From IMG/VR virus record IMGVR_UViG_2744054895_000001, positions 30,790 to 94,789 of that record: a stretch of 64,000 nt of DNA. One strand, 5' to 3'. The translations under genes were made by a program, and so were the position numbers. Positions 2,865-64,000 of the stretch are shown one piece after another (position 1 is the first letter of the stretch; every line of letters begins with the position of its first letter). The notes under the pieces are model-generated. The model had not been told where the DNA came from. It made no database searches and was given only the letters and a program-made list of their open reading frames with translations. This DNA is from a virus. Taxonomy: Duplodnaviria; Caudoviricetes.

Positions 2865-3594
2865 GGCGGAGGTCCTCTCCGGTCATCGGGACGACCTCGC
2901 AGGCTTCCGACAGGAAGCTCTGCATGGAGGGGTTGTAGACCTTGTCCCAGTCGCCGGGCTTGTTGTTGCTGGTGAGGATGGTCGGCAGGGCGTTGCGGTA
3001 CCGGCCGCGGATGAGGGCGTCGAAGACATCGGCCGCGTATCCGGAGGCGGTGTGGTGCTCCTTACCCATGTCGTCGAGGACGACCAATGGCCAGGTGAGG
3101 ACCTTGTCCAGGAGTTTCTGGAGGGCCATGAACTTCTCGCGGGCGAACTCGTCGCCGGTCGCCTGGTAGAGATCCCGCCAGTTGCGGTGCTCGATCAGGG
3201 CCTGGACGTAGTCAGCGAACGGGACGAACAGGATGCGGCCGGCCCCGCCTGGGTGTCGCTGTCGGATGGTGGCGAGTACCGCGCACGCCGTTGTCGTCTT
3301 GCCCGTGCCGGCGTTGCCAAAGAGCAGCAGCCCCTTGCCGATGTGGCAGCGATCCTCAGGTATGTCGGCCATCGTCGCGTCGGCCGGGATGTGGCGCTCA
3401 CGCCAAGTTGCGACGAAGTCTTCGACGGCCTTGCGGACGTGGGGCTGGAGCCGGGTCAGGGACTCGATCCCAAGGCCCCAGTGCTGCACGGGGATCCTGG
3501 CCGTCTTCCAGACCAGGCTCGTGTCTCTGTCTGGCGCTTCGGCTGTCTGCACGGTCCTCCTCCTTGCGGTAACGCGAGGAGCACATTGAACCAC
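2854..3594 (-). CDS. DnaC/IstB-like AAA+ helicase loader
   Basis: GLLLFGNAGTGKTT Walker A, LVVLDDMGKE Walker B, RYRNALPTILTSN; true start may be GTG near 3552. Confidence 0.9.
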   Translation of the reverse strand: MVQCAPRVTARRRTVQTAEAPDRDTSLVWKTARIPVQHWGLGIESLTRLQPHVRKAVEDFVATWRERHIPADATMADIPEDRCHIGKGLLLFGNAGTGKTTTACAVLATIRQRHPGGAGRILFVPFADYVQALIEHRNWRDLYQATGDEFAREKFMALQKLLDKVLTWPLVVLDDMGKEHHTASGYAADVFDALIRGRYRNALPTILTSNNKPGDWDKVYNPSMQSFLSEACEVVPMTGEDLRRAA

Positions 3595-3628: not shown

Positions 3629-4624
3629 TCACCATGCCCAGTCGCCAGCCGGTTGGTCCCCGGAAGGCCCATCCCAGCCTTGGTAGACCGCGTCCGGGTG
3701 CTCCTTCAGCGCCTCCACCTCGCGCCCCTTGCGGATCGCGTCGATCAGCAGGGCGCGCTTGCCGATGAAGTCCTGCCACGCGAGCGCACGCGGGTTCCGC
3801 AGTCCCTCCGTGGTCGCGTAAAGCGCGCTCATCTCGCGCAGTTCGTCCGGCGTCAGACCGGCGCCCTTGAGCTTCACGAAGTGGCTGGCCAACGCTCTGA
3901 GGTTGCTCTCCAGCCCGAACGCCCACGGCTGCTCCTCGACGGTTTCCCGCCAGTGCCGAGCCAGGCCAGGTCCGGTGTCCGGCCCAGGCTGGCGGCGCCC
4001 AGTGACCTTCTGCCGACGGTCGGCGCCCCAGCCACCTCGGGGCTGTTCCTGGGGCTCCTGAGCTGCTTTCTCGTCGTCCCACAAGCCCATGGACTTCGCC
4101 GGGTCGTAGGCATCCTCCTCGGCCGCCCGCCGCTTCTCCTCGGCTCGCCGGGAGGCCCTGCGCGGAGCCGTGCGCGAAGCGTGCGGGCCTTCCGAAGGAA
4201 GGAGATTCTTTGAATCTCCTTCTTGTTGCGCCACTTTTGGCGTGACCCCTACGCCACATCTGGCGTAGCCCATCTCCTCGGGTGTGGCCAGGTAGTAGTT
4301 GCACGGACCGCCAGCCCAGCGCCGCTCGGTGCGCAGCCAGCCGCTCTCTCGCAGCTCGGTGATGCGTCGCGAGACGGTTCGCAAGGACCAGTTGAGGTCC
4401 TTGGCCAGGCGCTGTTGCTTCGGGAAGGCGCAGCCGTTGCGGCCGGCGTACTTGGCCAGCAGGCACCCGAGCCGGAACGCTGCATCGGAGATCTTGTTGT
4501 CGAGGATGAAGACGTGCGGGGTCTGGACCCACAGTTCGTGGGCCATGAGGCGGTCCTGCTCCTGGTCCTTGGTCACCGGCCGCCCTCGGGGGTGATCAGG
4601 CCGACAGACTTCAGCTCGGTCCAC
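3629..4624 (-). CDS. Phage replication initiator with N-terminal winged HTH
   Basis: ISDAAFRL...CAFPKQQRLAKDLNWSLRTVSRRITELRESGWL; lies upstream of the DnaC-like gene; start uncertain. Confidence 0.75.
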   Translation of the reverse strand: MDRAEVCRPDHPRGRPVTKDQEQDRLMAHELWVQTPHVFILDNKISDAAFRLGCLLAKYAGRNGCAFPKQQRLAKDLNWSLRTVSRRITELRESGWLRTERRWAGGPCNYYLATPEEMGYARCGVGVTPKVAQQEGDSKNLLPSEGPHASRTAPRRASRRAEEKRRAAEEDAYDPAKSMGLWDDEKAAQEPQEQPRGGWGADRRQKVTGRRQPGPDTGPGLARHWRETVEEQPWAFGLESNLRALASHFVKLKGAGLTPDELREMSALYATTEGLRNPRALAWQDFIGKRALLIDAIRKGREVEALKEHPDAVYQGWDGPSGDQPAGDWAW

Positions 4625-6387: not shown

Positions 6388-8070
6388 CTAGGAGAAGACG
6401 AGACTGAACGTTGTCCCCCAAGGAACATTCTCCCGGAGAATCTCCGTAAGTCGTTGTGCGTGCCTTGCCCTTCCGGGGAAGTAGAGGCTTTTTGAGGAGT
6501 CGTTCGACCCTTGCCACAGGTAATCGGCGGAAGGATCTGAGCCGTCGAAGTACTCCCCCAGTTCCGAGCCCTCTTCCACGAGAATGTCGTCCGCCCAGAA
6601 AGCGATGCCGTTATTGCTGGCCGCGTATGTGGCTTTGGGTGCCAGAATGCCTGCGTATACCTGGCGTGTGCTGGTGGCAGGTGGTGTCCAGGTGTAGTAG
6701 ACGCGCACCCAGTCACCGTCAACCAACTCGGGACGGTTCGCCTTGATCCAGTCTGTGTCTGGGCCGTAGCGGTACGTGGTGCCGAGTGGGTCCCAGGCTG
6801 CTGCGCTGAGGGCTGGATAGCCAGATGGGACGTTCACCCACGCCGATATGGTGTGGGGGACGCCCGTCTTCAGCAGGTCGCCGCCCTTGGTACCGGGGTT
6901 GATGCCGCCCAGAGTGGCAATTCCGACCTGTGCAGGAGCAGTTCCCCCGCTGGGAACCTGAAATTTCAAAGAGCCGGGCTTGGTTCTTCCCTCGACGCTG
7001 TCCCAGGTGAATGTGTTGGTAACGCCTGAGACGCCGTGATATCCCCAGCGTGCGGTACCCGAGTTCATTCCAGGGTTGTTGACAAGGTTGACTCGCTTGG
7101 GTTTAACCCGGATTTGCAGGTCCCGCGGCGCCTGCCAATCGGGCACTCGGTATGCCGGATCCTGTGACTCGTAGGCGAGGTAGTGTGCGTCGGAGTAGAA
7201 GTACCAACCGATCTGCGGCGACGTATTTCCGTAGTAAACGAACGGCGTCACGCACGCGTACCGGGCGGTGCTCGGCGCGGTCACGCTGACCTGTGCGGTG
7301 GACCAGTAGCCGTTGGGCTGGCTGGTGTTGTCGCTGGCCGAGGACAGCCCGTCGTAGACCAGCTTGTAGTTGGCGTCGTAGCAGCGAACCCAGACCCGCC
7401 AGCGTCGGGAGATGTCGGTGGATACAGAGACGCGGGCGGTGATTCGGCCGCCACCGGCCTTCAGCGGCGCGAGGGCGTCGGTGTGCGGCTCCAGTGCCCA
7501 GCCGGTTGAGCCGCTGGGAATGTAGATGGTCGTCGCCTTGGCCGAGTATTCGCCGACCAGGGCTCGCTCTTTGGTGCGCGTCGCGACGGTGCCGTTGTAC
7601 GACTCGTAACACATGTGGTCGTCGTGGAAGGCTGCCGACCGGTCCAGCAGGTTGCCCGAGGCCGCCTTGGCGAACTGGACGCGGTCGAATGCGACCGTTG
7701 CATTCGTCGGCAGGTTGTCGTAACGCAGCCCGACGCTGGCGTAGGCGGCCCCGTTCCACAGCTTCCCAGCTTCGCCGCGGTTGTAGTCGATGGGCACAGC
7801 CGCGGTAATGCTCGTGCGTTGCCACGTGGAGCTCAAGGTGGCGAGCAGGTCCGAGCCGCCGACCCAGGACATCGCCGGATCGGCCGAGGAGGGGTTGGCG
7901 ATGCCGAGGTCGGCGAATCCGCCAGCCGGGTGCAGCGTCGTCATCGCAGCGGTGCCGCTGGTGCTGCTGGTGGCCGATCCGGCGATGAGGAGCGAGTACT
8001 GAGTGATGGGGTCGCTGCCCGTCGTCTCGACGATCGCCTGTATCGGCTGGGTGGAGAGAACCGGCATCAC
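6388..8070 (-). CDS. Tail/baseplate-associated protein with beta-sandwich (CBM-like) domains
   Basis: NLVNNPGM...ADDILVEEG..GEYFDG motifs typical of actinophage tail proteins; position. Confidence 0.65.
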   Translation of the reverse strand: MMPVLSTQPIQAIVETTGSDPITQYSLLIAGSATSSTSGTAAMTTLHPAGGFADLGIANPSSADPAMSWVGGSDLLATLSSTWQRTSITAAVPIDYNRGEAGKLWNGAAYASVGLRYDNLPTNATVAFDRVQFAKAASGNLLDRSAAFHDDHMCYESYNGTVATRTKERALVGEYSAKATTIYIPSGSTGWALEPHTDALAPLKAGGGRITARVSVSTDISRRWRVWVRCYDANYKLVYDGLSSASDNTSQPNGYWSTAQVSVTAPSTARYACVTPFVYYGNTSPQIGWYFYSDAHYLAYESQDPAYRVPDWQAPRDLQIRVKPKRVNLVNNPGMNSGTARWGYHGVSGVTNTFTWDSVEGRTKPGSLKFQVPSGGTAPAQVGIATLGGINPGTKGGDLLKTGVPHTISAWVNVPSGYPALSAAAWDPLGTTYRYGPDTDWIKANRPELVDGDWVRVYYTWTPPATSTRQVYAGILAPKATYAASNNGIAFWADDILVEEGSELGEYFDGSDPSADYLWQGSNDSSKSLYFPGRARHAQRLTEILRENVPWGTTFSLVFS

Positions 8071-10829
8071 AGGCTCCGTTCGAGCAGGCCGAAGTACGTT
8101 CCGTCAGGCGTGGTCTGGGAGATCGAGGCCAGCCTTTTGGGAGCAATGCCTGGGGCGGTGTACTGGTAGACCTCGACCAGGTTCGAGGCGTGGTTGACGT
8201 AGATGCGTCCGCCGTCTGGGATTTCCGGCCAGGTCGCCATGACGGTGACGGTGCCGCTGACGGTCTTGGTAAGTCGGGTTCGGGATGCCATCCAGAAGCT
8301 GGTGGCGTTGCTGTTGGAGCGGAAGACGATCCCGTGCTCTGCGGCGGAACCTCGTCGTGGCCTGCTCATGAACGTGATGTAGAAGCGCCAGTCGCCGATA
8401 GGGGCAGCCCCCGGCATCTGATTCAGCGCCCAGATGGTGTATGGAGTGCTGCTTGGGGTGACCGGGGACAACATGCCGTCCGAGACGACCCACGTACCGC
8501 TCGTCGTCCAGGCGGATGGGCTTGACCACCGCGTGGAGTAGCTGCGGTCACCGCTGAAGTTGGAGTTGGGCTCGTTGAAGCGTTGGAAGAACGTCTGGGA
8601 GTACACAGCCCCGTCGTTGACGGTGGTGACGAGGTTGCCCTGCTCGTCGTACCAGTCGATGAAGGGGCGCGCGAGACTGCTGGTGGCGCCGGCGAGCAGC
8701 TTGGTGTACGCGGATGCTGTCCAGCTCTGCTGCGCTGAGCCTGCAAAGGACCAGTGGGTGTTGTCCGCCGCGTCTCCGTCCGGCTGCTTGTTACGGGAGT
8801 CGACGCGGGCGACGTAGGCGAAGTTGTTGAACGCTACTCGCTCGCCGGCTATGTAGCTGACCTGGGGGCTCCACTGCGGGATGCGGTTCAGAGGCACGCC
8901 CCAATGCCTGACCATGGTCGGCATGGGCAAGGGGGTGATTCCCTGGGTGTCGGAGACCTCCCACACGTTGCGGTCCGTGCCCGGTTCGACATCCTGGTTC
9001 TTGACGAGCGCTCGCCACACTGTGCCGCTGGTGTCACGGACTAGATTGTCCAGGACGTAGGTGGTGTCGGCTGACCAGGTCCGAGCGGTGGGTGTGCCGA
9101 CCGAGCGCACGCCGAGGGATGCGGCCGCGGTTCCCTGATTGGTGACGGTGGCGGCGTTGTTGTCGGTGTCGGTTCCTGTGACCGCGGTGAGGCCGGCGGC
9201 CACGCTCAGACCGCTGGGGTAGGCGCCTGTCGACAGGTTTCGCAGGCTCCAGGTCGAGGGTGACAGGGTGGTGGGGTTGGTCAGGCGGTCGCCGACGTCG
9301 ATTCGAGTGGCTTCGGTGACCTTGCTCCACCAGCCGCTGCCGTTCACTGGTTCCTGGCCGCGCGAGGGGTCGACGGTGCCGGTGACGACGAAATAGTTGA
9401 AGCCGGCGTTGTCGTCGGTGGCTGCGGCGTTCTTGCCCACGATCTTGGTCGTGAAGGTGTGGGTGCCGGCCGTAAGTGTGTACCGCCCCAGGTAGCGGGT
9501 CTTGGGGGAGGTACGAGGCTTTCCGGCGATGGGGCTCAGGTAGTGGTCGACGGTTCCGATGCTGCTGAGTGCCCCGTCGATGGCGTAGGTCGTCTTGCCG
9601 TAGGCGGTCCCGTCGGTGGCGGTGACGGACAGGTCGTAGACGCCGTCGGCGGCGATCGTGAAGTTGACGGTGACGTAGGAATTCGTAGTGCCGCTGAGTA
9701 CGAGGAACGGCGTGGTGCCGTAGACGAGTGTGCTCCCGCTGGTGCTGCCCGAGCTGGGTGGAGTCTTCTTTACCGTGCCCGAGCTTGCGGCGACCGGCAT
9801 GGTGTCGGCCCGCGTCGAGGTGGTGACCGACTTGATCGCGGTCCACAGAGCACCTTCGTGATCGACGACTTCGCCGCCCTGGTAGGTCAGGTTCGCGTCC
9901 CAGGCGGGGAACTTGGGGTTGGCCCAGTTCGCCTGGTCTTGGTTGAGCATGAGGTTGCCGCTGCCGACGATCTCGACATCCCATCCGGTGAGGATGTTGA
10001 TGAGGTTGGCGATGCCGTCGTCGGTCCCTCGGCTACGGGCCAGAGCGACGGCCTTGTGGGTGTGGACCCGGCGACGGAGGGGCTCGTCGCTGGCCTCGGT
10101 TGAGACCCCGAACTGGTGGGCCAGGCTGTTGATGGCGCTGCTCGGTGCGGTGTCGATGCGGCGGAGGTCCCGCAGGATGCCAGTTTCAGTCGCAATCGTG
10201 TCGAGTTGGTGGCCGAAGACGCTGAGGAACTGAAACAGCTCCGGGTTGGTGACGCCGACTTCGTATCCGGTGACCTCAGTGGTGTCGAGCCTGTAGGCGC
10301 GTGGGATGGACTCGTACAACCGCAGGGCGTAGCCGTGGTCGAGGATGGACAGGCCGGCGGCGGCGCCAGCCCGCACCCAGTTCTCGGTCAGGGTGGTGTG
10401 CTGCCAGTATTCGGTGCTGCTTCCTGGTGTGATGCCGATGCTGCCTGCCACGGCGGCGTAGTTGACGCCGTTGTAGCTGACGACGTCGCCGGTCGTATAC
10501 GTGATGGTGCTCGCCCAGGCCGTGACGCCGAGGAAGATGCCGTAGTAGTAGACGCGGCCCTGGGGCAGGCCGATGTCGTCCCAGGTGCGGCCTGGAGCGC
10601 TCTGCGGAATCTCGGCGATCACTGTGCCGTCGTCTCCGTGCGTGGGCACGCCGAAGGCGTTGCGGACGATCCGTAGGACGCTCCAGGTGTTCTGCGACGC
10701 GGCTCCCCAGGCAAGCTGGATATGGCGGGGGGCAACGGACGTTGCGGTGACCGGCTCGACGCTGTACTGGACCGCGGTGTCGGCGCCGTAGAGGCTCTTG
10801 CCGTAGTAGTCGTAGCCGTACACGGCCAT
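8067..10829 (-). CDS. Baseplate wedge (P2 gpI-like) / tail fibre protein with about 4 CBM5/12-like modules
   Basis: LYESIPRAYR..FLSVFG..LAHQFG..RGTDDGIANLINILTGW; repeated W...Y..G..V...G..W/Y motifs; start MAVYGYDYYG. Confidence 0.7.
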   Translation of the reverse strand: MAVYGYDYYGKSLYGADTAVQYSVEPVTATSVAPRHIQLAWGAASQNTWSVLRIVRNAFGVPTHGDDGTVIAEIPQSAPGRTWDDIGLPQGRVYYYGIFLGVTAWASTITYTTGDVVSYNGVNYAAVAGSIGITPGSSTEYWQHTTLTENWVRAGAAAGLSILDHGYALRLYESIPRAYRLDTTEVTGYEVGVTNPELFQFLSVFGHQLDTIATETGILRDLRRIDTAPSSAINSLAHQFGVSTEASDEPLRRRVHTHKAVALARSRGTDDGIANLINILTGWDVEIVGSGNLMLNQDQANWANPKFPAWDANLTYQGGEVVDHEGALWTAIKSVTTSTRADTMPVAASSGTVKKTPPSSGSTSGSTLVYGTTPFLVLSGTTNSYVTVNFTIAADGVYDLSVTATDGTAYGKTTYAIDGALSSIGTVDHYLSPIAGKPRTSPKTRYLGRYTLTAGTHTFTTKIVGKNAAATDDNAGFNYFVVTGTVDPSRGQEPVNGSGWWSKVTEATRIDVGDRLTNPTTLSPSTWSLRNLSTGAYPSGLSVAAGLTAVTGTDTDNNAATVTNQGTAAASLGVRSVGTPTARTWSADTTYVLDNLVRDTSGTVWRALVKNQDVEPGTDRNVWEVSDTQGITPLPMPTMVRHWGVPLNRIPQWSPQVSYIAGERVAFNNFAYVARVDSRNKQPDGDAADNTHWSFAGSAQQSWTASAYTKLLAGATSSLARPFIDWYDEQGNLVTTVNDGAVYSQTFFQRFNEPNSNFSGDRSYSTRWSSPSAWTTSGTWVVSDGMLSPVTPSSTPYTIWALNQMPGAAPIGDWRFYITFMSRPRRGSAAEHGIVFRSNSNATSFWMASRTRLTKTVSGTVTVMATWPEIPDGGRIYVNHASNLVEVYQYTAPGIAPKRLASISQTTPDGTYFGLLERSL

Positions 10830-21650: not shown

Positions 21651-22533
21651 TTACTTTATGACTGCGTAGGAATTCGGACCGTAACTGTCCGCGACCTTGA
21701 AGTCCCATCCCTCGTGCGCGAACGTGAGCTGGGAAACGGCGAATGTATTGCTTCCAGCGTCGAGGTCACCAAAGGCAACCGAGGTGGGCCAAGCGTTGTA
21801 GAGGCGCCATACCGCCTTTACTGCTGCCTTGCTCTTGGTAACCGGGTGGTCGATGAGCATGATGTCGATCGTGGCCCGGAATTCTGAGCCGGTATCGGAT
21901 CCGGATCCGTTGCCCTGCATGACGTCGAAGAGCTGGTACATCCAGTTCACGAGTTTCTGGTCGCCCGGCATCATTCCCTTGGAAAGGGTGACGGGGCTGA
22001 AGTCGCTCTGACCCAGAGGCTGTTACCTCTCCGGTTTCCCGGAGCGGGCTGGTCATTTCTGCCAGCCTCTCGCATTCTCATGCGAGTTCGGACTCTATCT
22101 TCACCCCAGAGGGGTGTCCCGTACATAGTCTCTGGACCTTCCCGTCGGTTTCCCAGGCGGGCTCGGCTGCTGATTTTCCCTACCCTCGGACTTCTCAAGC
22201 CGTCGCGCTCAGGCTTTCGCCCCACGCTGTGGCGCCGAGGTCTAACAGGACGTTCCAGCAATTCTCGGGATTTTCACTCGCTACTTACGCAGCGAGGGCC
22301 CAGTCAAGTTGAGGCATTTTCTGAGTGGTCGTGTTCATGCCGCCGGCCCTGTATGCGATGACGTCAGTCGTCACGGAAAGGCCGGAAACCGACATGAAGC
22401 CGAGCTTTGGATAGGCAGAGGACAGCTTGCCGACCTGGCTGATCTGGACGTGGAACTTGAACGAGCGAAGGGGGTCCGTCTGTCGCGAGGCCAGGCTCTG
22501 GCTTTGCGAGACGGTCTTGAGGGTGGATGCCAT
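21651..22533 (-). CDS. Tail tube protein (T4 gp19-like), two exons 22533-22312 and 22013-21651, 194 aa spliced
   Basis: Exon 1 DPLRSFKFHV..GF..VSGL..YRAGGMNTTTQKMP joins in frame to GQSDFSPVTLSKG..WRLYNAWP..LTFAHEGW. Confidence 0.9.
22014..22311 (-). ncRNA. Group I self-splicing intron (298 nt, no ORF)
   Basis: 5' exon ends in U, intron ends in G; P AAUUGCUGGAA, Q AAUCAGCAGC, R CAGAGACUA, S AAGAUAGAGUCC; P1 GCCU/GGGC with U.G; P10 UGACU/GGUCA. Confidence 0.93.
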
Positions 22534-56252: not shown

Positions 56253-56315
56253 GCACGGACGAAAGCCCTACGGGGTCAGTAGAAAGGCAGCGATCGTTCC
56301 TTGAGAACTCAACAG
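56253..56315 (+). promoter_or_regulatory. rRNA-operon leader / boxA antitermination mimic
   Basis: GGACGAAAGCCCTACGGGGTCAGTAGAAAGGCAGCGATCGTTCCTTGAGAACTCAACAG resembles the Streptomyces rrn leader as recalled (GGAGGAAAGCCCGAGAGGGTGAGTACAAAGGAAGCGTCCGTTCCTTGAGAACTCAACAG). Confidence 0.8.
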
Positions 56316-56319
56316 TGGA

Positions 56320-56985
56320 TATAGACGCACGGGAACGGTAACGACGTTTCTGCGCGGGGGTCGAGGGACCCCCACTATCGGCCGACGTGTCGATAGGGCG
56401 TGCATGCAACAGGGGTGAGGTATGCCTACTGTTGCCGAAGGATTAGAGTCCGGGACCAAATGCGCGTGGCTAGACGTCCGTGGCTTTCACAGCATGGAGA
56501 CAGATAGTCAGTGGATACGTGGTGGCAAGAGCTAACACAGAGGTACCGCCACCGTTACCCGTAGCGTCACTCTCTCTCATATCGCGCCGGATTTATCTGT
56601 GCGCGATACGGGGAGCGTTGCTCTTACAGGGCGCTCCCCTACCCTCTCTGTTTGGTCCGTTTACCGACGGACAACGCAGTACCGAGAGAGTCTGTCTAGG
56701 TTTCCGGTTGGAATCCAAGCTAAACCCACCATGCGTTCAGTGTGCTAGCACTGCATGGCCGTCGTCTGATGACGTAAGTGAGGGGTGTCGTGGGGTCTAG
56801 CAGCCCCAAGTAGGTCAGTTACATCGAGGCCGAATCCCGGGTGCTTTCACAGGTCCTAAGCGAATTCCGATTCCTAGACGCTCTCTCAATCTCATGCACT
56901 ACGGTGCGGCAGGGGCATGCCGGCTTGTCATGCGCGCATTTCCCTGCCGTAGCCGAGAGCCAACGGAGTGGTGTCCGTTGGTCAC
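56320..56985 (+). ncRNA. Candidate large structured leader/ncRNA
   Basis: No credible ORF; many hairpins; long-range stems 56324-56338/56552-56568 and 56684-56700/56873-56887. Confidence 0.55.
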
Positions 56986-57003
56986 CCATGAGAGGAGAGA
57001 ACA

Positions 57004-57489
57004 ATGTCTCATCGCCAGGCGATTACCCGTGAGGATTACCTGTCGGCGCTGAGTGCCGCCCAGTTCGGCGATGTCGCTCCGTTTCTGGCGCGATGCTGCC
57101 CGGACTGCGGTGCGGGTGATGAGTCCGCATCGGATGGGAAGCACGCTGTCATGGGCGGCAGTGTCGTGATCGGATGCGACGGATCCATGCTCGTGAACCC
57201 CAATCTTCTGGGATTCAACGTGGAACTGTGGCTCGACTGGCGTCATATGGAATCCGACAACGTGCCCGAGGACGCCTCTGTGTGGGCATATGAGGGCGTG
57301 ATCTGGCGGACCGGCGCGAAGGTGCGTCCGGCCCGGCCGACGGAGTACGAGGACGGTCTGACCGGAACTCTCGTGCGTATTGCCCTGGAGCACAGCTTCG
57401 GCGATACCGAAGCAACGCTCTGGGTCCAGTGGCACAACAACACGAGCGGTCCGGACTATCACGGATACGGTGACATCGTTCTGATCTGA
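57004..57489 (+). CDS. hypothetical Cys/His protein (paralog of 60233-60931)
   Basis: GAGAGGAGAG RBS; CPDC..HAVMGGSVVIGCDG..VNPN..WLDWR. Confidence 0.75.
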   Translation: MSHRQAITREDYLSALSAAQFGDVAPFLARCCPDCGAGDESASDGKHAVMGGSVVIGCDGSMLVNPNLLGFNVELWLDWRHMESDNVPEDASVWAYEGVIWRTGAKVRPARPTEYEDGLTGTLVRIALEHSFGDTEATLWVQWHNNTSGPDYHGYGDIVLI

Positions 57490-57490
57490 A

Positions 57491-57558
57491 AGTCGTCCCG
57501 GCGACTCTAAATAGGCGTTAGGCCGGGAGCGTCCGTACGGAATTCCGTACGGGGTCGC
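57491..57558 (+). ncRNA. Pistol self-cleaving ribozyme 1
   Basis: P1 AGUCG/CGACU, loop UCCCGG pairs with CCGGGA, UAAAUAG, P2 GCG/CGC, UUAGG, GCGU, P3 CCGUACGG hairpin, G|U site 57554/57555. Confidence 0.9.
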
Positions 57559-57611
57559 AGCAGCGCTGCGGGTCAGGGGTGGTGCCCTGTCTGTGTCGAG
57601 AGGAGAGAGCA

Positions 57612-58139
57612 ATGAGCATCAGTCCGATCAACTGGTCCGAGCGCATCATGCGTCCCCGGTCCGGTGCGTGGAAGCAGTGCCCTAACTGCAAGCGGCGGAA
57701 CGTCTCCATTCGCTCCCCGCATTCCCACACCGACGGCCGACCGTGCAAGTTCGTGGTGATCTACCGCACGTACTTCACGATGGACATGATCCATGACGGC
57801 GACTACGGCCAGATCAGGAACGAGGACGGCTCTTTCGGTGACGGTCCCCTCCAGACTTACGAGATTGTGGACTGCGCGCCGAAGGACGTCTCCGGTCCAT
57901 GGGACAACCCCGTCAAGCTCGCAATCGACGCCATTCGTGACGCCGATTGCGCGTACGACGAGGGTGCCGACTGGTTTTACCACCACGACGGCTCGTACAT
58001 CCGAGACCACTACTCGGGTGAGCGCATCGACCCGTCCGCGCACCTCTGGGGGTTCACGGACGAGGAAGACGAGCGCGTCCACCACGTGATCCAGCGCGGG
58101 TGGAAGCAATTCTGGGCGAGCCTGCGTAAGGCCGCCTAA
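57612..58139 (+). CDS. hypothetical protein (CxxC..H..C)
   Basis: GAGAGGAGAGAG RBS, ATG 57612. Confidence 0.75.
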   Translation: MSISPINWSERIMRPRSGAWKQCPNCKRRNVSIRSPHSHTDGRPCKFVVIYRTYFTMDMIHDGDYGQIRNEDGSFGDGPLQTYEIVDCAPKDVSGPWDNPVKLAIDAIRDADCAYDEGADWFYHHDGSYIRDHYSGERIDPSAHLWGFTDEEDERVHHVIQRGWKQFWASLRKAA

Positions 58140-58140
58140 C

Positions 58141-58208
58141 AGTCGACTCGGCGACTCTAAATAGGCGTTAGGCCGAGTGCGTCCGTACGGAATTCCGTGC
58201 GGGGTCGC
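58141..58208 (+). ncRNA. Pistol self-cleaving ribozyme 2
   Basis: Same fold with compensatory pseudoknot ACUCGG/CCGAGU; G|U site 58204/58205. Confidence 0.9.
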
Positions 58209-58241
58209 AGGGGTGGTTCCCTGCCACGAGAGGAGAGAGCT

Positions 58242-58952
58242 ATGTCTGCGCAGACCCTCGAAATGGTTGCGTCCGACTTTCTGTACGGCTCCACCGAGGA
58301 GGCCCTGAACGAACTGTTCGCGGCCCCGCCGGCCATGGAGCCGCACACTGACGCGCGCTTCGACAAGGGCAACGACACGATCGTCATCGACGGGGTGCAG
58401 TTCTACGCCAAGCGCGTGGACTACCACCGTGAGATGGACGAGAAGTTCGTCCAGTGGGTGATGGAAAACCGCCAGGGGTTTCCGGTCTACGGCGACCCGT
58501 CCTCTGCGGACGGCGAGTCGTTGGAACTCTGGGCACAGTCCATCACGGACAAGTACTTCGGGTCCCCCTACATCTCCGGCATCGACACGGACGGCTACGA
58601 GTCGTTCATGCCGAACGGGGTCAAGGGCCAGTTCTTCCGGTACGAGGACGAGACGTACGTCGCCCTGTGGCAGCAGTGCACCGGATACCGCGCACGCACG
58701 CGTCCGATGGTGTTCCACGTGTCCTGCCACGAGTCCGCCTACCTGCTGGACGACGACAAGGCCACGGCGTACTGCACCGAGTGCGAGGACGTCGTGTTCG
58801 ACATCGAGTCCGGCGGGCAGCACATCAAGCGCATCGACCGGAACGGCGAAGAGATCGACGACGCCCCGGAGGTGTCATTCGACGACCTGGTCGGCCATCC
58901 CGTCTGCCCCAAGTGCGGTTCCGATCTGCGTGTCGAGGCCGCGAATTTCTGA
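58242..58952 (+). CDS. hypothetical acidic protein with C-terminal zinc ribbon
   Basis: RBS; CTEC...CPKCG. Confidence 0.75.
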   Translation: MSAQTLEMVASDFLYGSTEEALNELFAAPPAMEPHTDARFDKGNDTIVIDGVQFYAKRVDYHREMDEKFVQWVMENRQGFPVYGDPSSADGESLELWAQSITDKYFGSPYISGIDTDGYESFMPNGVKGQFFRYEDETYVALWQQCTGYRARTRPMVFHVSCHESAYLLDDDKATAYCTECEDVVFDIESGGQHIKRIDRNGEEIDDAPEVSFDDLVGHPVCPKCGSDLRVEAANF

Positions 58953-58961
58953 ATTCATTCA

Positions 58962-59021
58962 TGCCGAAACTCCGTGAGGAGTCGTCCCAAGGTGGTGCTT
59001 GGGACCTGATGATGGCAGCCA
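58962..59021 (+). ncRNA. Type II hammerhead ribozyme 1
   Basis: UGCC-GAAA-CUCC(GUGA)GGAG-UC|GUCCCAAG(GUGGUG)CUUGGGAC-CUGAUGA-U-GGCA; cut after 58983. Confidence 0.92.
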
Positions 59022-59053
59022 ATGTCTGAGTCAGTGTTGAGAGGAGAGAGCTT

Positions 59054-59617
59054 ATGTCTGACCTGCGCATCTACGTGGCGAGTCTGTCCGACTACAACAA
59101 CAGCATTCTCCACGGTCGATGGATCGACGCTGACCAGGATGTCCAGGCCATCAACGATGAGATCGCTGAGATGCTGAAGGAGTCGCCTGCGGCCCAGAAG
59201 TATGGCGATGTCGCGGAGGAGTATGCCATCCACGACTACGACGGATTCGGGGATTTCAATCTCGGCGAGTATGAATCGCTGGAGAAGATTACGTCCATTG
59301 CCAAGGCACTGGATGAGTTTCCCTCTTGTGTAGTCGCTTGGTTCTTCCGCGAGTGCTCCCACATGGAGTTCGACGAGATTGTGGACACCATCCGCGAGAA
59401 GTCGATCACCACGATCGAGGATCAGTGGGGCAATGAAACGGACGCGCTGGCTGAGTATCTCTTCGACCAGATCGAAGAGAGTGGTGACCTGCCGGAGCAG
59501 TACAAGAATCACCAGATGGCCATAGCCAAGAGCATGGCGCACGATGCCGTCTGCGGCGGGGAATACAACATCCTCTACGAGGGCGGCGGCAAGTACCACA
59601 TCTTCGAGGTCCTGTGA
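59054..59617 (+). CDS. ardA: Antirestriction protein ArdA (DNA mimic)
   Basis: RIYVASLSDYNNSILHGRWIDA..EEYAIHDYDGF..LGEYESL; very acidic. Confidence 0.88.
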   Translation: MSDLRIYVASLSDYNNSILHGRWIDADQDVQAINDEIAEMLKESPAAQKYGDVAEEYAIHDYDGFGDFNLGEYESLEKITSIAKALDEFPSCVVAWFFRECSHMEFDEIVDTIREKSITTIEDQWGNETDALAEYLFDQIEESGDLPEQYKNHQMAIAKSMAHDAVCGGEYNILYEGGGKYHIFEVL

Positions 59618-59622
59618 CCAAT

Positions 59623-59682
59623 TGCCGAAACCCCTTCGGGGGTCGTCTCAGGGTGGTGCCTGGGGCCTGACGATGGCAGCCA
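59623..59682 (+). ncRNA. Type II hammerhead ribozyme 2
   Basis: UGCC-GAAA-CCCC(UUCG)GGGG-UC|GUCUCAGG(GUGGUG)CCUGGGGC-CUGACGA-U-GGCA; cut after 59644. Confidence 0.92.
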
Positions 59683-59705
59683 TTGTCGGTTTCGAGAGGA
59701 GAGTT

Positions 59706-60140
59706 GTGACGAGACACGCTATCCGGGCGATGCGAGGAATAATGCGTCGCAGGGATCAGGACTACGCGTGGATTCCATCGCTGGGCCATGGAGTTCTCTA
59801 TGACCCCGATAACCCTACCTGCCCGCACTCTGTCACAAGAGCGGCAGTTCGTGCGCTCCCGAGCGGAACACGCACGATGTCTTGCAGGATAAGTAACAGG
59901 TCTCGCGCGTTGGAGCTCGTAGTCCGAGAATTGGCTACGGAATGGTACTGCGACATCGCAGACATACGATCTATCGTGGCCGACAGGTTCCGGGGATTCG
60001 GGGACAGCGAACAATCCGCACTCGACGATGCAATCACGAGTGGCCTTACTTCCCCGACTTCTCTGGAGAACGTCAAGCACGGGTGCATGACGGAATTCCG
60101 CAAGACGCCGTTCGGTGTGGTCATGCTCGATCAGGGTTAA
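59706..60140 (+). CDS. hypothetical protein
   Basis: GTG after GAGAGGAGAG; lower GC than neighbours. Confidence 0.65.
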   Translation: MTRHAIRAMRGIMRRRDQDYAWIPSLGHGVLYDPDNPTCPHSVTRAAVRALPSGTRTMSCRISNRSRALELVVRELATEWYCDIADIRSIVADRFRGFGDSEQSALDDAITSGLTSPTSLENVKHGCMTEFRKTPFGVVMLDQG

Positions 60141-60146
60141 TCAAAA

Positions 60147-60206
60147 GCCGAAACCCCTTCGGGGGTCGTCGTGGGGTGGTGCCCACGGCCTGATGACGGC
60201 AGCCGC
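60147..60206 (+). ncRNA. Type II hammerhead ribozyme 3
   Basis: GCC-GAAA-CCCC(UUCG)GGGG-UC|GUCGUGGG(GUGGUG)CCCACGGC-CUGAUGA-C-GGC; cut after 60167. Confidence 0.92.
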
Positions 60207-60232
60207 TGAAGTCAGTTCTGAGAGGAGAGAGC

Positions 60233-60931
60233 ATGAAGCCCGAGGAATTGGAGTACCTGGACGCCGTGCGTCAGACACCCCTCGGACGCATCGAGCCTTA
60301 CCTGTCTTCGGTCTGTCGTGACTGCGACGGACAGGTGGACTCGTCGAATTTGGCTGGGCACGTGATGATCGGCTCACATGTCGTTATCTGCTGTGAGGGT
60401 TACTTCATGGTGGACCCGAACGTGGTCGGCATCCCGTCGCCGAATTGGTCGGACTGGCGCGAGAAGGCAGAGTCCAATCCCAAGTCGCTGTATAAGCAGG
60501 GTGAGTTCCTGGCTGCGCACGCCCTAGAACTGGGCGTCTCGTACGACAGCGATCTTCCTGCGTCCGCCTTCCACCCGAAGCTCGTCGGCGCGGCCATTGC
60601 CGCTCTGCGTGCATGGCTGGAGGTCAACTGGGGCAGCGCAGCAGTCCGCGAGGCCGAAAAGGAGGCCCTCGGTCACACCGGAGACGGGATGTATGTCGGC
60701 ACGGTCGACAAGCTCAACTACCAGGGGAAGACCCTGTGGGTTGGTGATCGTGTGCGCTGCGCGAACCAGGATGCGCAGGGGAACGACCTGTCTTTCTCCG
60801 GGGTGCTAGCCAAGATCGAGCTGGAGTACTGGGGGTCCGAACTGAAGCCGACGGTCAATGTGCGCGCTCCCGAAGCGACGCACGACGATCCGATCGGATG
60901 GGAGGACCTGAGCCGCGTAACGTCGTCGTAG
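60233..60931 (+). CDS. hypothetical Cys/His protein (paralog of 57004-57489)
   Basis: CRDC..HVMIGSHVVICCEG..VDPN..WSDWR. Confidence 0.75.
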   Translation: MKPEELEYLDAVRQTPLGRIEPYLSSVCRDCDGQVDSSNLAGHVMIGSHVVICCEGYFMVDPNVVGIPSPNWSDWREKAESNPKSLYKQGEFLAAHALELGVSYDSDLPASAFHPKLVGAAIAALRAWLEVNWGSAAVREAEKEALGHTGDGMYVGTVDKLNYQGKTLWVGDRVRCANQDAQGNDLSFSGVLAKIELEYWGSELKPTVNVRAPEATHDDPIGWEDLSRVTSS

Positions 60932-60948
60932 TTTGGATTCGCCTACAA

Positions 60949-61010
60949 GCCGAAACCTCCGAGAGGAGGTCGTCGTGGGGTGGTGCCCACGGCCTGATGA
61001 AGGCAGCCGC
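60949..61010 (+). ncRNA. Type II hammerhead ribozyme 4
   Basis: GCC-GAAA-CCUCC(GAGA)GGAGG-UC|stem I-CUGAUGA-A-GGC; cut after 60971. Confidence 0.92.
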
Positions 61011-61037
61011 TGAAGTCAGTTCTGAGAGGAGAGAGTT

Positions 61038-61538
61038 ATGGGTCTGAGCAAGCAGGATGTCCGCGCGATCAGGAACGCTGATGGACTGGTGTTCTTCCAC
61101 AACGCCCCGATTTCTCGGGGCGGTGAGCGCATGAACTGGCTCAAGTGCATCCGCGACGGTTCGAAGACTTCGAGTGGTTTCGAGGACTTCCACGTCGTCC
61201 GGCTGGAGAGCACGTCCATCACGTACTACGGGGAGGACGCGCACACCAAGCACTCGGCGTCCCTCGGTGACGAAAAGGTCGTCGGGTCCGTCTACATCAG
61301 CTCCCCCGGCATGCTGCCGCAGCATGAGACCTGGATGCGAGCGCTCCGCGAGGGTGATGAACTCCGGGTCCAGATGTGGCTGGGCAACAACAACGGCTAC
61401 CTCAAGGAGTCGGGGATGGCGCATGACTACGCGTGGTTGGACATCCGGCGCCCGAAGACGGACGCCAGGACAAGGTACTGGCTGGGCAATGTGATCTGCC
61501 CGGCGACCAGCACGTGCCGCATGCTGAGGGCGCTCTGA
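61038..61538 (+). CDS. hypothetical protein
   Basis: Strong RBS, 166 aa. Confidence 0.75.
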   Translation: MGLSKQDVRAIRNADGLVFFHNAPISRGGERMNWLKCIRDGSKTSSGFEDFHVVRLESTSITYYGEDAHTKHSASLGDEKVVGSVYISSPGMLPQHETWMRALREGDELRVQMWLGNNNGYLKESGMAHDYAWLDIRRPKTDARTRYWLGNVICPATSTCRMLRAL

Positions 61539-61602
61539 ACCAGCGGTAGAAGGCTCGCCGGCTGAGGTGTGTTCTCTGTCGGCGGCCCTGCCGTGCCTAA
61601 TT

Positions 61603-61662
61603 TGCCGAAACTCCGTGAGGAGTCGTCGTGGGGTGGTGCCCACGGCCTGACGAAGGCAGCCA
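61603..61662 (+). ncRNA. Type II hammerhead ribozyme 5
   Basis: UGCC-GAAA-CUCC(GUGA)GGAG-UC|stem I-CUGACGA-A-GGCA; cut after 61624. Confidence 0.92.
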
Positions 61663-61694
61663 ATCGCTGAGTCAGTATTGAGAGGAGAGAGCAC

Positions 61695-62519
61695 ATGAGC
61701 ATCAGAAAAGTGCTGGTCTCGGCTGATGACGTTCACGCGTACGAAGCCATGGTCGACACGGAGGCTCCGCTGTGGAACGGGTTTCTTTCGCCCCGCTTCA
61801 CTCTGGAGGCCGTGAAGCAGATAGCTTCTGACATGCAGGAGGATCTGAAGAGGTCCGGCTACGCCGATCAGGAGGAGATCCGCGTCATCGAGGCCCCCGG
61901 TTTGTTCGGGGAAAGCGAGGACAGGGTCGACGAGTTCGGCGAGCCGATCCAGATCCCTGCGGTGGTGGTGCTCCATATCAGTTGGACGTACGTCTTCGAT
62001 GACGACCCGGAGTCCTGCGCGAAGGTGGTTGCGCCCGGCAAAGACGGGTTGTACGCCGTTGGCGCATGGGAGTGGACGTGGAGCGAGATCAGTCCGAACA
62101 TCTCCCAGCGCGCGGAGTATCTATTCGACTTCGCGACCGCGGCCATCAATGAGGCTGTCTGGTACGAAGTCGAGCCGACTGAGGACGACGAGGACCAGAC
62201 GCTCGGCATGGAGTGGGAAGCCGTCGAGGCCCTGAACCTGGGGATCAACAGCGTGCATCTCAACATGCGCTCCGCCTTCATGTCCGCGCTCGGGGAGTTC
62301 ATCGACGCCAATGCGCAGGTGCTGAACGGCATCCCTGCCGACCAGGCCGGCTATGCCTTCTGGCACTCCATGCGCGGGGTGGACGGCATCAAGTCCCGTT
62401 CGTTCCTCGGAAGGCGTGAGATCCCCGCAGAGGTTCGCCAGCGTCTCCACGAGACGGCGCGTACGCACTCGTACAGCAGCGTTCGATTCGTCGGAGACAT
62501 GCTCCACATCGAGAGCTAG
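61695..62519 (+). CDS. hypothetical acidic protein
   Basis: Strong RBS; WNGFLSPRFT..GLYAVGAWEWTW. Confidence 0.75.
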   Translation: MSIRKVLVSADDVHAYEAMVDTEAPLWNGFLSPRFTLEAVKQIASDMQEDLKRSGYADQEEIRVIEAPGLFGESEDRVDEFGEPIQIPAVVVLHISWTYVFDDDPESCAKVVAPGKDGLYAVGAWEWTWSEISPNISQRAEYLFDFATAAINEAVWYEVEPTEDDEDQTLGMEWEAVEALNLGINSVHLNMRSAFMSALGEFIDANAQVLNGIPADQAGYAFWHSMRGVDGIKSRSFLGRREIPAEVRQRLHETARTHSYSSVRFVGDMLHIES

Positions 62520-62527
62520 CTCAACAA

Positions 62528-62589
62528 TGCCGAAACCTCCGAGAGGAGGTCGTCGTGGGGTGGTGCCCACGGCCTGATGAAGGCAGCCA
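62528..62589 (+). ncRNA. Type II hammerhead ribozyme 6
   Basis: UGCC-GAAA-CCUCC(GAGA)GGAGG-UC|stem I-CUGAUGA-A-GGCA; cut after 62551. Confidence 0.92.
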
Positions 62590-62620
62590 ATCGCTGAGTC
62601 AGTGTTGAGAGGAGAGAGCT

Positions 62621-63217
62621 ATGCGGACTGCTTCAACTATGATCGGTTTCGCGATCGTCGAGGACGACGACTTCGACCTGGAGAACTTCAGCGACTCCGA
62701 AGCGCTCATCAAGGAGTGCGGCGAGAAGCTGGAGTCTGGGGAGTGGACCGTCTGCGGCATCGTGGCCGTGGTCCACGGCGAACTTCGATACGAGGCCGCC
62801 CTGTGGGGCACCGTCATCGAGGGCTGGCACTTCGGCAGGTACAAGACCGTGGAGGACATCCGCGACCCGTACCTCCGAGAGGTCGCCGAGGACATCGCCG
62901 ATCAGGCGCAGGATCTCATCCCGGTGACGCACGCCGACGACTCACCTGACGCGCTGGTCGGTCACGTGGTGGCCGTCCGGCCGTACTACTACGAGCCATC
63001 CGGTCCCGGATCCTTCCGCTCCAAGCGTTCCCCATTCATCGCCCGTGCGGAGGTGAAGGAGACGTTCGGGGAGGAGATGGTCGTCCTGCGGTTCCTGGAG
63101 GACGCCGGTCCGTGGCCGCGCGACGGTGCCTACTACCCGCGCGAGTTGCACAAGGTGCAGGCGTGCAAGTGCCCCGCATGTACCTCCGGTGGCATCGGCA
63201 TACACCAGGGAGCTTGA
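62621..63217 (+). CDS. hypothetical protein
   Basis: Strong RBS, acidic N-half, C-terminal CxCxxC. Confidence 0.72.
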   Translation: MRTASTMIGFAIVEDDDFDLENFSDSEALIKECGEKLESGEWTVCGIVAVVHGELRYEAALWGTVIEGWHFGRYKTVEDIRDPYLREVAEDIADQAQDLIPVTHADDSPDALVGHVVAVRPYYYEPSGPGSFRSKRSPFIARAEVKETFGEEMVVLRFLEDAGPWPRDGAYYPRELHKVQACKCPACTSGGIGIHQGA

Positions 63218-63280
63218 TCCAGACGCAGAGGACTCGTCGGCTTGCCATGCACGTCGGCCGACGGATCCGCCATGCCTTAT

Positions 63281-63343
63281 TGCCGAAACCTCCTGCAAGG
63301 AGGTCGTCACGGGGTGGTGCCCGTGGCCTGACGAAGGCAGCCC
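63281..63343 (+). ncRNA. Type II hammerhead ribozyme 7
   Basis: UGCC-GAAA-CCUCC(UGCAA)GGAGG-UC|GUCACGGG(GUGGUG)CCCGUGGC-CUGACGA-A-GGCA; covarying stem I; cut after 63305. Confidence 0.92.
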
Positions 63344-63370
63344 TTGGTCAGTTCTGAGAGGAGAGAGCAC

Positions 63371-64000
63371 ATGATCAGCACCGGCAAGCCCGAGGTCAAC
63401 CCGGCTACCTTCGTGCTCGCGGAGGATGACGGGGTGGTCACGGTACAGGTGTCCGTCACCTACCCGATGGATGGTGAGGCCATCGTCGCCAAGCTCTACG
63501 CGGCGTACAGCAAGCCGTTCGAGAACGGCACGCCCCTCCCCGAGCAGTTGACCATGCAGGACGTCATGCGCACGCTCGCGCAGGAGTCCGCCAACTGCGC
63601 GGACGGCTGGCACTTCTGGGAGTCCGAGCCAGGCCAGGCGGCGTGGGACGCGGTTCATCCGTGGGCGGAGGCTCAGGTCCGTCGTCTCTTTCCCATGCTG
63701 ACGTGGCCAGAGGAGCAGTGGTCCGAGTATGCCGAGGTCGGCCGGATGGTCGAGCATCTCCGGCAGATGGGGATCCCCGCCGAGGAGATCAGCACAGGTG
63801 GCGGCTGCTGGGCCGCGCGTGTGGCGCTTTGCCAGGGGCACGATCTGAACCTGACCATCGCGTCCGGTGAGGACTGGTGTTGGCAGATCTACCGCGAGGG
63901 CGAGCAGAGCATGGCCGGCTACTGGCCGGGGTCTGACATTCCGCGTGCCGCCCGGCGCACCAAGAAGCTCATCAAGGGGCTCGGCAACGTGGTTGCCTGA
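63371..64000 (+). CDS. hypothetical protein
   Basis: ATG 63371 after GAGAGGAGAGAG; stop at window end. Confidence 0.72.
   Translation: MISTGKPEVNPATFVLAEDDGVVTVQVSVTYPMDGEAIVAKLYAAYSKPFENGTPLPEQLTMQDVMRTLAQESANCADGWHFWESEPGQAAWDAVHPWAEAQVRRLFPMLTWPEEQWSEYAEVGRMVEHLRQMGIPAEEISTGGGCWAARVALCQGHDLNLTIASGEDWCWQIYREGEQSMAGYWPGSDIPRAARRTKKLIKGLGNVVA

Follow-up and report, generated by a model that had tools for sequence, protein, structure and literature searches.

The window analysed here, a stretch of 64,000 nucleotides that forms the 3' end of the 94,789-base IMG/VR provirus record IMGVR_UViG_2744054895_000001, closes with a same-strand array of ten small genes (the last 7 kb, 56900-64000, according to the open reading frame (ORF) list), and each of these genes is preceded by a hairpin with the hexaloop GUGGU(G/U). 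We consider it moderately probable that this loop is the pseudoknot-forming loop of type II hammerhead ribozymes, and that the apical stem-loop has been reused in this lineage as a 5'-terminal hairpin and spread among the gene junctions by recombination. The known hammerhead pseudoknot explains seven of the ten sites. The three hairpins that stand alone are not explained by it.

Hairpins and ribozymes of the array

The ten hairpins are found one per junction, 17-48 nucleotides (nt) 5' of the start codons of ten consecutive genes, just as a preliminary description of this DNA had placed them, and a constant ribosome-binding site (RBS), GAGAGGAGAG, stands in front of each gene. The loop is GUGGUG in nine of the ten hairpins and GUGGUU in the one at 58207. 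Given the Rfam gathering thresholds of 34.5 bits for the pistol ribozyme (RF02679) and 37 bits for the type II hammerhead (RF02276), two pistols with P1, P2 and P3 and seven type II hammerheads were identified in the array junctions. Their coordinates, along with those of the other features, are presented in Table 1. In all seven hammerheads, CUGA(U/C)GA, CGAAAC and GUC are present, stem III is a hairpin, stem I has 8 bp and stem II is open; judged by sequence, these hammerheads belong to type II and are predicted to be self-cleaving. Both Rfam and the parsing of the junctions agree with the earlier statement that the hexaloop is stem-loop I of every hammerhead.

The remaining three hairpins were recovered where they had been described, downstream of both pistols (57574 and 58207) and before gene 1 (56960). 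The absence of a ribozyme before gene 1 was likewise borne out, as no Rfam match (Rfam 15 classes) was obtained there even at E <= 10. No CUGANGA, GAAA or GGCAGCC is adjacent to any of these three hairpins, and none of them gave a hammerhead match at E <= 10.

When both strands of the 94,789-base record were scanned, 15 GTGGTK hexaloops closed by a stem of at least 4 bp were obtained. Ten of these occupy the ten consecutive junctions, and the other five comprise one within gene 7 (61168-61185), with a stem of 6 bp, and four weak hairpins of 4-5 bp. The placement at ten consecutive junctions is not due to chance.

Loop and tail of the hammerheads

In type II hammerheads, loop I forms a conserved pseudoknot with the 3' tail that lies just after stem II (Perreault et al. 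2011, PMC3088659). According to the accessible text of that paper, k_obs falls about 20- to >100-fold when the pseudoknot is shortened or mutated, and activity returns with compensatory changes. The Rfam Hammerhead_II consensus reads GcgUGGugGC in loop I and GcAGCCaAAg in the unpaired 3' tail after stem II. In the window, the loop (UGGU/GUGGU) can pair with the tail (GCCA/GCCGC) over 4-6 bp in six of the seven hammerheads, and over about 3 bp in the hammerhead at 63281, the tail of which is GCCCUU.

A blastn search of the region against GenBank phages yielded matches consisting of ~60-nt hammerhead segments in 43 Streptomyces phages, plus ArdA. Five R4-like Streptomyces phages (Loofah, Issmi, Alvy, Diane and R4) were compared, and according to Rfam their right arms hold 50 type II hammerheads, 9-11 per phage, and no pistols. 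The loops of these hammerheads vary (UGGU, UGGUU, CGGUU, GGG, GUGGCG, AUGGCUG, CUGGCAU, ACUGGGCAG), as do the tails (AGCC, AACC, ACCC, GCCA, AGCCG, UGCCA, GCCCA), and they occur as partners: UGGUU with AGCC, CGGUU with AACC, GGG(U) with ACCC, GUGGC with GCCA(U/C), UGGCA with UGCCA, and UGGGC with GCCCA. For the 44 of the 50 hammerheads that were parsed (37 distinct loop/tail combinations), the mean cognate loop-tail pairing score is 11.27, compared with 10.07 +/- 0.28 with permuted tails, and none of 5000 permutations reached 11.27, a result to be taken as support and not as an exact probability, given that orthologous hammerheads of the five phages share ancestry. Since loop and tail co-vary in the R4-like phages, the tail sets the identity of the loop in hammerheads, and the loop is no universal signal of such arrays.

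These results bear on an argument of the preliminary description, namely that differing stems around a kept loop point to a role beyond hammerhead folding, and they do not support it. In seven of the ten cases the loop forms part of the pseudoknot of the hammerhead itself; it is also the Rfam family consensus, was demonstrated experimentally in this role (accessible text of PMC3088659), and co-varies with the tail in related phages. Furthermore, the stand-alone stems cannot count as independent of the hammerheads, since over 12-14 nt at the apex they are identical to stem-loop I variants.

Two further observations concern the R4-like phages. In phage R4 (L032), the tiny coding sequences (CDSs) gp75.1, gp67.1 and gp60.1 (3898-3999, 6855-6947 and 9227-9310) coincide with type II hammerheads (3912-3976, 6864-6928 and 9232-9296), and are probably ribozymes, not genes. 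In the stretches viewed, none of the hammerheads of the R4-like phages is annotated as a feature.

Stand-alone hairpins in a sister prophage

When species genomes were scanned with a pistol-core pattern, one Streptomyces contig (genome G001) matched. It carries a sister prophage (locus L058) with three pistols and 17 hammerheads in 12.4 kb, which is the only close relative found, and the junction alignments between the two are about 76-83% identical. The hammerhead loops of this prophage are GUGGUG in 15 of 17 and GUGGUU in the other two, and P3 of the pistols co-varies between the window and the G001 copies. The preliminary description had proposed a check for loss of the loop at pistol-type junctions of related phages. 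In this one prophage, the GUGGU hairpin is kept at all three pistol junctions and in the leader as well.

Both types of pistol-junction hairpin have the core CAGGG/CCCUG in common. At the type A junction (57574), all 19 nt of the hairpin (CAGGGGUGGUGCCCUGUCU) are identical in G001, and the 3 nt 5' of it and the spacer 3' of it differ. For the hairpin at 58207, GCAGGG/CCCUGC in the window corresponds to GCAGGA/UCCUGC in G001, which is a compensatory G-C to A-U change. In the leader, G001 has CCAACGGA-(U)GUGGUG-UCCGUUGG, in which the stem and GUGGUG are kept and one U is inserted in the loop. The long leader hairpin just 5' of it (56899-56952) has a conserved stem with one compensatory change (CGGCAGGG/CCCUGCCG in the window, CAGCAGGG/CCCUGCUG in G001), and conservation does not extend to its apex.

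The apical 12-14 nt of the stand-alone hairpins, GGR-GUGGUK-YCC, are those of hammerhead stem I apices of the same or the sister genome, of which GUCUCGGA-GUGGUG-UCCGAGGC and GUCGUGGG-GUGGUG-CCCACGGC are examples. The leader apex CGGA-GUGGUG-UCCG and the pistol apex GGG-GUGGUG-CCC are identical to stem I apices found in G001 and the window.

One more GUGGU loop was observed in the sister prophage, after the last hammerhead of its array (L058 17410-17444). It sits on a hairpin of ~20 bp that is followed by GCUGUUU and, 11 nt onward, by an RBS. This hairpin is non-homologous to the others and is not a ribozyme according to an Rfam-based search.

Recombination at the junctions

The pistol-2 junction of the window corresponds to two different junctions of G001. 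From the pistol through the hairpin it equals G001 junction B1, and the part that runs from the hairpin's 3' strand past the RBS and into gene 3 equals G001 junction B2, so that the crossover falls at this 3' strand and one G001 cassette is missing in the window. The ortholog of window gene 2 (protein start MSISP) has a hammerhead upstream in G001 and a pistol in the window. In addition, nine G001 junctions share an identical tail-spacer-RBS string. Comparison of the two genomes thus indicates that junction modules spread and homogenise within a genome, and such spreading would be a sufficient explanation for the same apical stem-loop being found at junctions of different ribozyme class. The layout also suggests that the repeated junction modules are recombination sites for the shuffling of accessory gene cassettes.

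Occurrence outside the two prophages

No GTGGTK was found within 150 nt downstream of any of 20 unrelated viral pistol loci, the downstream GUGGUK hairpin is absent from the Rfam pistol model, and no stand-alone copy before an RBS was found in the five R4-like phages. A further 80 viral loci (704 kb), picked by a pattern of GUGGUG stem I plus core, contained 51 hammerhead-type hairpins and no pistols. On the hammerhead strand of these loci there are 12 further hairpins, of which five are hammerhead variants, as seen from flanking GAAAC and a CUGA-type core, and the remaining seven are weak or lie in coding-like sequence. To judge from these comparisons, the GUGGU hairpin at non-hammerhead junctions is specific to one lineage.

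Other searches for relatives were negative within their scope. The proteins of genes 2 and 3 have no relatives among viral contigs, and DNA patterns for the hammerhead tail plus RBS, the high-GC pistol core, and stem-loop I plus core plus tail matched nothing in viral contigs. The high-GC pistol core gave three chance matches in metagenome contigs, none with an Rfam ribozyme, and megablast of the region against phages gave no match. A blastn search against plasmids retrieved homologues of gene 10 only, the best of which, on a Kitasatospora plasmid, is without an Rfam ribozyme. Among 151 Streptomyces genomes sampled, pistols were found in G001 only, and as this is a sample, absence elsewhere is not implied.

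The products of unrelated pistols were also folded (20 loci, of which 6 were unparsed, giving 12 distinct products), and no z-score below -1.8 was obtained. A 5' hairpin as a general companion of pistols was rejected, given that several of the 12 folded products lack one.

Predicted 5' ends and proposed role

Cleavage after GUC is predicted to place stem I of each hammerhead at nucleotide 1 of the downstream RNA. For the pistols, the cut, which we take from crystal-structure papers to be at the G^U between P3 and P2 (57554/57555 and 58204/58205), would yield a 3' product that begins UCGCA. With the cut so placed, the type B hairpin (58207) begins at nt 3 and uses the last 3 pistol nt. The type A hairpin (57574) begins at nt 20, behind a small hairpin at nt 2-16 that is kept in G001 with a C-to-U change in its loop. 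In terms of these predicted cuts, the number of unpaired nt before the first stable stem-loop is 0 in the seven hammerhead products and 0-1 in the two pistol products.

The statement that the hairpin lies at or near the mRNA's 5' end after cleavage, upstream of the RBS, therefore holds as regards predicted position. The interpretation attached to it stands in part: the loop does occur outside hammerheads, 5' of the RBS and near predicted 5' ends, and it is the step from varied stems to an additional role that lacks support.

Folds of the cleaved products display another feature. At six of the seven hammerhead junctions, a conserved GUCAG is present 10-25 nt downstream of the core strand CUGA(U/C), with which it can pair, so that the cleaved product acquires a second hairpin in which the catalytic core is sequestered. 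The core strand of hammerhead 2 is sequestered likewise, by a different partner, and GAGUCAG is kept in the G001 junctions too. This hairpin may be a post-cleavage refolding element.

The account that we favour would run as follows. Loop I (UGGU/GUGGU) would pair with the GCCA/GCCGC tail and hold stems I and II parallel for fast cleavage, and cleavage after GUC, if it occurs in vivo, would cause the downstream mRNA to begin, at nucleotide 1, with stem-loop I. The three stand-alone hairpins would be copies of the apical stem-loop GGR-GUGGUK-YCC at junctions without a hammerhead stem I, two of them after the pistols and one in the operon leader. The 3' product of a pistol would otherwise be single-stranded at its start; at all three sites the copied hairpin would provide the mRNA with the same 5'-terminal hairpin before the same RBS. 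Every early mRNA would then start alike, and its 5'-OH end may be protected from 5'-exonuclease in this way and its RBS insulated. At the three stand-alone sites, the loop sequence would have been inherited through module copying and junction recombination, and would not be separately selected.

Streptomyces has RNase J, and the 3' products of ribozymes bear a 5'-OH. According to the accessible text of PMC10810187, RNase J1 breaks down such a 3' fragment in the case of the glmS ribozyme, and the fragment is protected by ribosomes that initiate on a strong Shine-Dalgarno (SD) sequence, a finding that makes a terminal hairpin near a strong RBS plausible.

Several observations weigh against this account. 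With one close relative, conservation of the loop and conservation of the whole hairpin are statistically inseparable at the stand-alone sites by sequence comparison, and the three loop changes seen there (position 6 G/U twice, one inserted U) all spare GUGGU. The loop is also kept despite a poor tail in two hammerheads, at 63281 of the window (GCCCUU) and at L058 15956 of G001 (AGUCAG). Together with the loop at L058 17410-17444, the sparing of GUGGU and the hammerheads with poor tails hint at selection on the loop itself. As to the hairpin, at least 4 of the 12 distinct unrelated pistol products fold without a 5'-proximal hairpin, and in the window, the simple hairpin has competitors in the minimum free energy folds of the pistol-product leaders, the probability that the SD of gene 3 is unpaired being 0.09.

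Alternative explanations

In a first alternative, GUGGU, perhaps as a UGG triloop closed by G.U, would be a free-standing signal in the 5' untranslated region of every early mRNA of this phage lineage, with a common partner that is either a protein or the GAUCACC in the 3' tail of 16S rRNA. We regard this as unlikely, if with an appreciable chance of being right. What makes the 5' end would then be irrelevant, be it a hammerhead, a pistol, processing of the leader or a long RNase III-like hairpin, and the pseudoknot would be one use of the loop among several, a corollary to which we give the same limited credence. If true, the arrays would be ribozyme-hairpin-RBS cassettes for expression that occur in nature and share one trans-acting point of control.

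A second alternative, close to the preliminary description, takes the GUGGU loop in any stem to be an operator for a phage or host RNA-binding protein, which would coordinately stabilise, activate or repress the early mRNAs. The loop is found in four non-homologous stem contexts of two genomes (stem I, pistol junction, leader and L058 17410-17444), every stand-alone change leaves GUGGU intact, and position 6 varies between G and U in both contexts. However, in all 24 hammerheads of the two genomes the tail pseudoknot already engages the loop or accounts for it, and a protein would face competition from this pseudoknot. The R4-like phages, with the same array layout, have many loops, so that a loop-specific factor is not general to such arrays. 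In addition, the apices of the stand-alone hairpins match those of hammerheads exactly over 12-14 nt, as copying predicts. On balance, such an operator is improbable.

The stand-alone hairpins could instead be functionless, decaying relics of hammerheads, the catalytic parts of which were replaced by pistols or lost. This would agree with apices identical to stem-loop I, with junctions that are mosaic and recombining, and with the restriction of the feature to one lineage. Nevertheless, we consider it decidedly improbable, given that there is no trace of CUGANGA, GAAA or the GGCAGCC tail beside these hairpins, and that both genomes retain them, with a compensatory change in the stem and with flanks more diverged than the hairpin itself. 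Moreover, the type B hairpin is fitted onto the last 3 pistol nt in each of its three copies.

Pairing of the stand-alone loops with downstream sequence to form a pseudoknot was considered and rejected, as there is no common GCC-like partner. The CCAC/CACC beside two of these hairpins overlaps or abuts the stem, which leaves no connecting loop for a pseudoknot.

The loop might also be an auxiliary docking site (standby or STAB-SD-like) for the 3' tail of 16S rRNA, recruiting or holding the 30S subunit at the mRNA's 5' end. With the 16S 3' end taken from the G001 genome, the predicted pairing with GAUCACC, next to the anti-SD, is -9.0 kcal/mol for G-GUGGUG-C and -10.4 kcal/mol for G-GUGGUU-C, compared with -9.1 for the real RBS. 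These two loops rank in the best 1.8% and 0.5% of 4096 hexamers, and ribosomes near a 5' end protect against RNase J1 (accessible text of PMC10810187). Against this, the observation is post hoc and concerns one motif, variants closed by A-U reach only -5.4, and the loop lies 5' of the SD, so that both cannot pair colinearly with one rRNA tail. The loop at hammerhead junctions is, furthermore, occupied by the pseudoknot, and a loop of 6 nt closed by a GC-rich stem is ill suited to pairing as a single strand. We thus hold docking of the 16S tail to be very unlikely.

Finally, the possibility that a G/U-rich hexamer recurs by chance in GC-rich hairpins, for which it could be said that GTGGTG is a common Val-Val codon pair in a high-GC genome and that GTGGTK occurs 113 times in the window (76.8 +/- 8.6 in shuffles), has practically no probability left, being refuted by the clustering of 10 of the 15 stem-closed loops of the 94.8-kb record in ten consecutive junctions at a fixed RBS distance and by the hairpins at orthologous G001 sites.

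Other features of the locus

ArdA, an anti-restriction protein encoded by gene 4 (PF07275), is the sole Pfam family of the array, the other nine genes being without a family. The end of the record coincides exactly with the stop codon of gene 10 (window 64000), and the array of the sister prophage runs to 20 ribozymes. For these two reasons, the array of the window is probably cut off at the end of the record.

Nothing useful resulted from a scan of 56300-64000 for sigma-70 promoters and terminators. A block of ~120 nt upstream of both arrays is conserved (window 56560-56680, L058 about 3060-3190) and holds two hairpins, GGGGAGCG...CGCUCCCC and GUCCGU...ACGGAC. It is probably an early control region. 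The window has about 240 nt of extra sequence between this block and the leader. In some junctions, the stop codon and the hammerhead are separated by an additional GC-rich hairpin (61540-61600, 63225-63275), in which a GCCGGCU(U/G) motif recurs, and the motif is present in the leader (56915-56940) and in several G001 junctions too. This extra hairpin could be an internal terminator, a promoter or a processing site. Elsewhere in the window, a Group I intron is found on the minus strand (22069-22321; Rfam RF00028, 68.5 bits, model matched full length).

The Kitasatospora plasmid NZ_CP108486.1 (L062) has a same-strand gene array without Rfam ribozymes. Before many of its genes there is a recurrent hairpin with a variable stem and the constant loop GAGGGCAAC, followed by CACCAACACC and an RBS, and a second recurrent hairpin, GGCGGC-AUCGA-GCCGCC, is also present. 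This is a separate system of junction hairpins with a constant loop.

Table 1. Features of the ribozyme array in the window, with hairpins of the sister prophage and of the Kitasatospora plasmid.
Feature	Position	Strand	Details
Long leader hairpin	56899-56952	+	5' of the gene 1 GUGGUG hairpin; no Rfam match
Leader hairpin	56960-56981	+	CCAACGGA-GUGGUG-UCCGUUGG, stem 8-9 bp; no ribozyme; RBS 56990-56999
Gene 1	57004-57489	+	ORF
Pistol 1	57491-57559	+	RF02679, 68.4 bits
Small hairpin	57556-57570	+	CGCAGC-AGC-GCUGCG; fold of predicted 3' product; takes up pistol P2 3' strand
Pistol-1 junction hairpin	57574-57589	+	CAGGG-GUGGUG-CCCUG, stem 5 bp; RBS 57598-57607
Gene 2	57612-58139	+	ORF
Pistol 2	58141-58209	+	RF02679, 67.3 bits
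Pistol-2 junction hairpin	58207-58224	+	GCAGGG-GUGGUU-CCCUGC, stem 6 bp; overlaps last 3 pistol nt; RBS 58228-58237
Gene 3	58242-58952	+	ORF
Hammerhead 1	58962-59024	+	49.9 bits; stem-loop I 58984-59005, core 59006-59012, tail GCCAAU 59018-59023
Gene 4, ArdA	59054-59617	+	ORF; Pfam PF07275, E 7e-25
Hammerhead 2	59623-59685	+	48.0 bits; stem-loop I 59645-59666, tail GCCAUU 59679-59684
Gene 5	59706-60140	+	ORF, GTG start
Hammerhead 3	60146-60208	+	50.8 bits; stem-loop I 60168-60189, tail GCCGCU 60202-60207
Gene 6	60233-60931	+	ORF
Hammerhead 4	60948-61012	+	55.4 bits; stem-loop I 60972-60993, tail GCCGCU 61006-61011
Gene 7	61038-61538	+	ORF
Hammerhead 5	61603-61665	+	47.3 bits; stem-loop I 61625-61646, tail GCCAAU 61659-61664
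Gene 8	61695-62519	+	ORF
Hammerhead 6	62528-62592	+	56.2 bits; stem-loop I 62552-62573, tail GCCAAU 62586-62591
Gene 9	62621-63217	+	ORF
Hammerhead 7	63281-63346	+	51.4 bits; stem-loop I 63306-63327, tail GCCCUU 63340-63345, about 3 bp to loop
Gene 10	63371-64000	+	ORF
Core-GUCAG pairings	59006-59034, 60190-60215, 60994-61019, 61647-61675, 62574-62602, 63328-63351	+	Folds of cleaved products
G001 type A pistol-junction hairpin	L058		AGGCAGGG-GUGGUG-CCCUGUCU
G001 pistol-junction hairpin	L058		GCAGGG-GUGGUU-CCCUGU
G001 pistol-junction hairpin	L058		GCAGGA-GUGGUG-UCCUGC
Constant-loop hairpin, intergenic examples	L062, 7619-7710, 8431-8518, 5300-5388		Kitasatospora plasmid

Relation to known systems and significance

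Stabilising stem-loops at the 5' terminus of bacterial mRNAs are known from the ompA, ermC and aprE leaders and from STAB-SD. The array resembles these in having a stable hairpin 0-2 nt from the predicted 5' end with a strong SD next to it, on RNA with a 5'-OH of the kind by which glmS ribozyme products are marked for RNase J1; it differs from them in that a ribozyme is predicted to make the 5' end at every gene, and here stabilisation is what we infer. RNase III processes T7 early mRNAs, and RiboJ-type synthetic insulators, reportedly introduced by Lou et al. in 2012, are said to combine a ribozyme, a hairpin and an RBS. As in both of these, upstream context would be cut off and a defined 5' untranslated region with a hairpin and an exposed RBS would be left on each cistron, so that each gene of an early anti-restriction operon would be processed separately, a likeness that is one of anatomy only. 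Unlike both, the array is natural and combines two ribozyme classes.

In comparison with the type II hammerhead (RF02276; PMC3088659), seven of the ten hairpins are stem-loop I, with a loop and tail that fit the family consensus. The accessible text of PMC3088659 reports single genes of a prophage-like element flanked by several hammerheads, with ardA directly downstream, as in the window; it describes no copies comparable to the three hairpins that have the same loop and lack the core, stem III and tail. The pistols, which score about twice the gathering threshold, are phage-associated and lie beside other ribozymes, as those of Harris et al. 2015 do according to the accessible text (RF02679, PMC4604425). 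Unlike the pistols reported there, which are prevalent in Firmicutes, those of the window are in a Streptomyces phage, and unlike all 20 other viral pistols, they have an additional conserved hairpin that is fitted to the P2 3' strand. Among the papers searched, no description was found of hammerhead arrays in Streptomyces phages or of a hairpin behind pistols, and supplements (e.g., the PMC3088659 alignments) may list such loci.

As the discovery of a new regulatory signal the finding is weak on its own, because most of the pattern is the hammerhead pseudoknot already described. More attention may be due to the ribozyme arrays of Streptomyces phages, in which 9-20 ribozymes are found, one for each gene, than to the loop. 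What self-cleaving ribozymes do in phage operons is an open question according to the accessible text of a review (PMC6765202), and the two arrays offer unusually clean material, with 9 ribozymes in the window and 20 in G001, two classes, one ribozyme per gene, and the same hairpin and RBS, in an early region that includes the ArdA anti-restriction gene. If the hairpin does cap 5'-OH mRNAs, this would explain why intergenic sites favour the type II topology, in which stem I remains at the newly made 5' end, and why the pistols here need an added hairpin.

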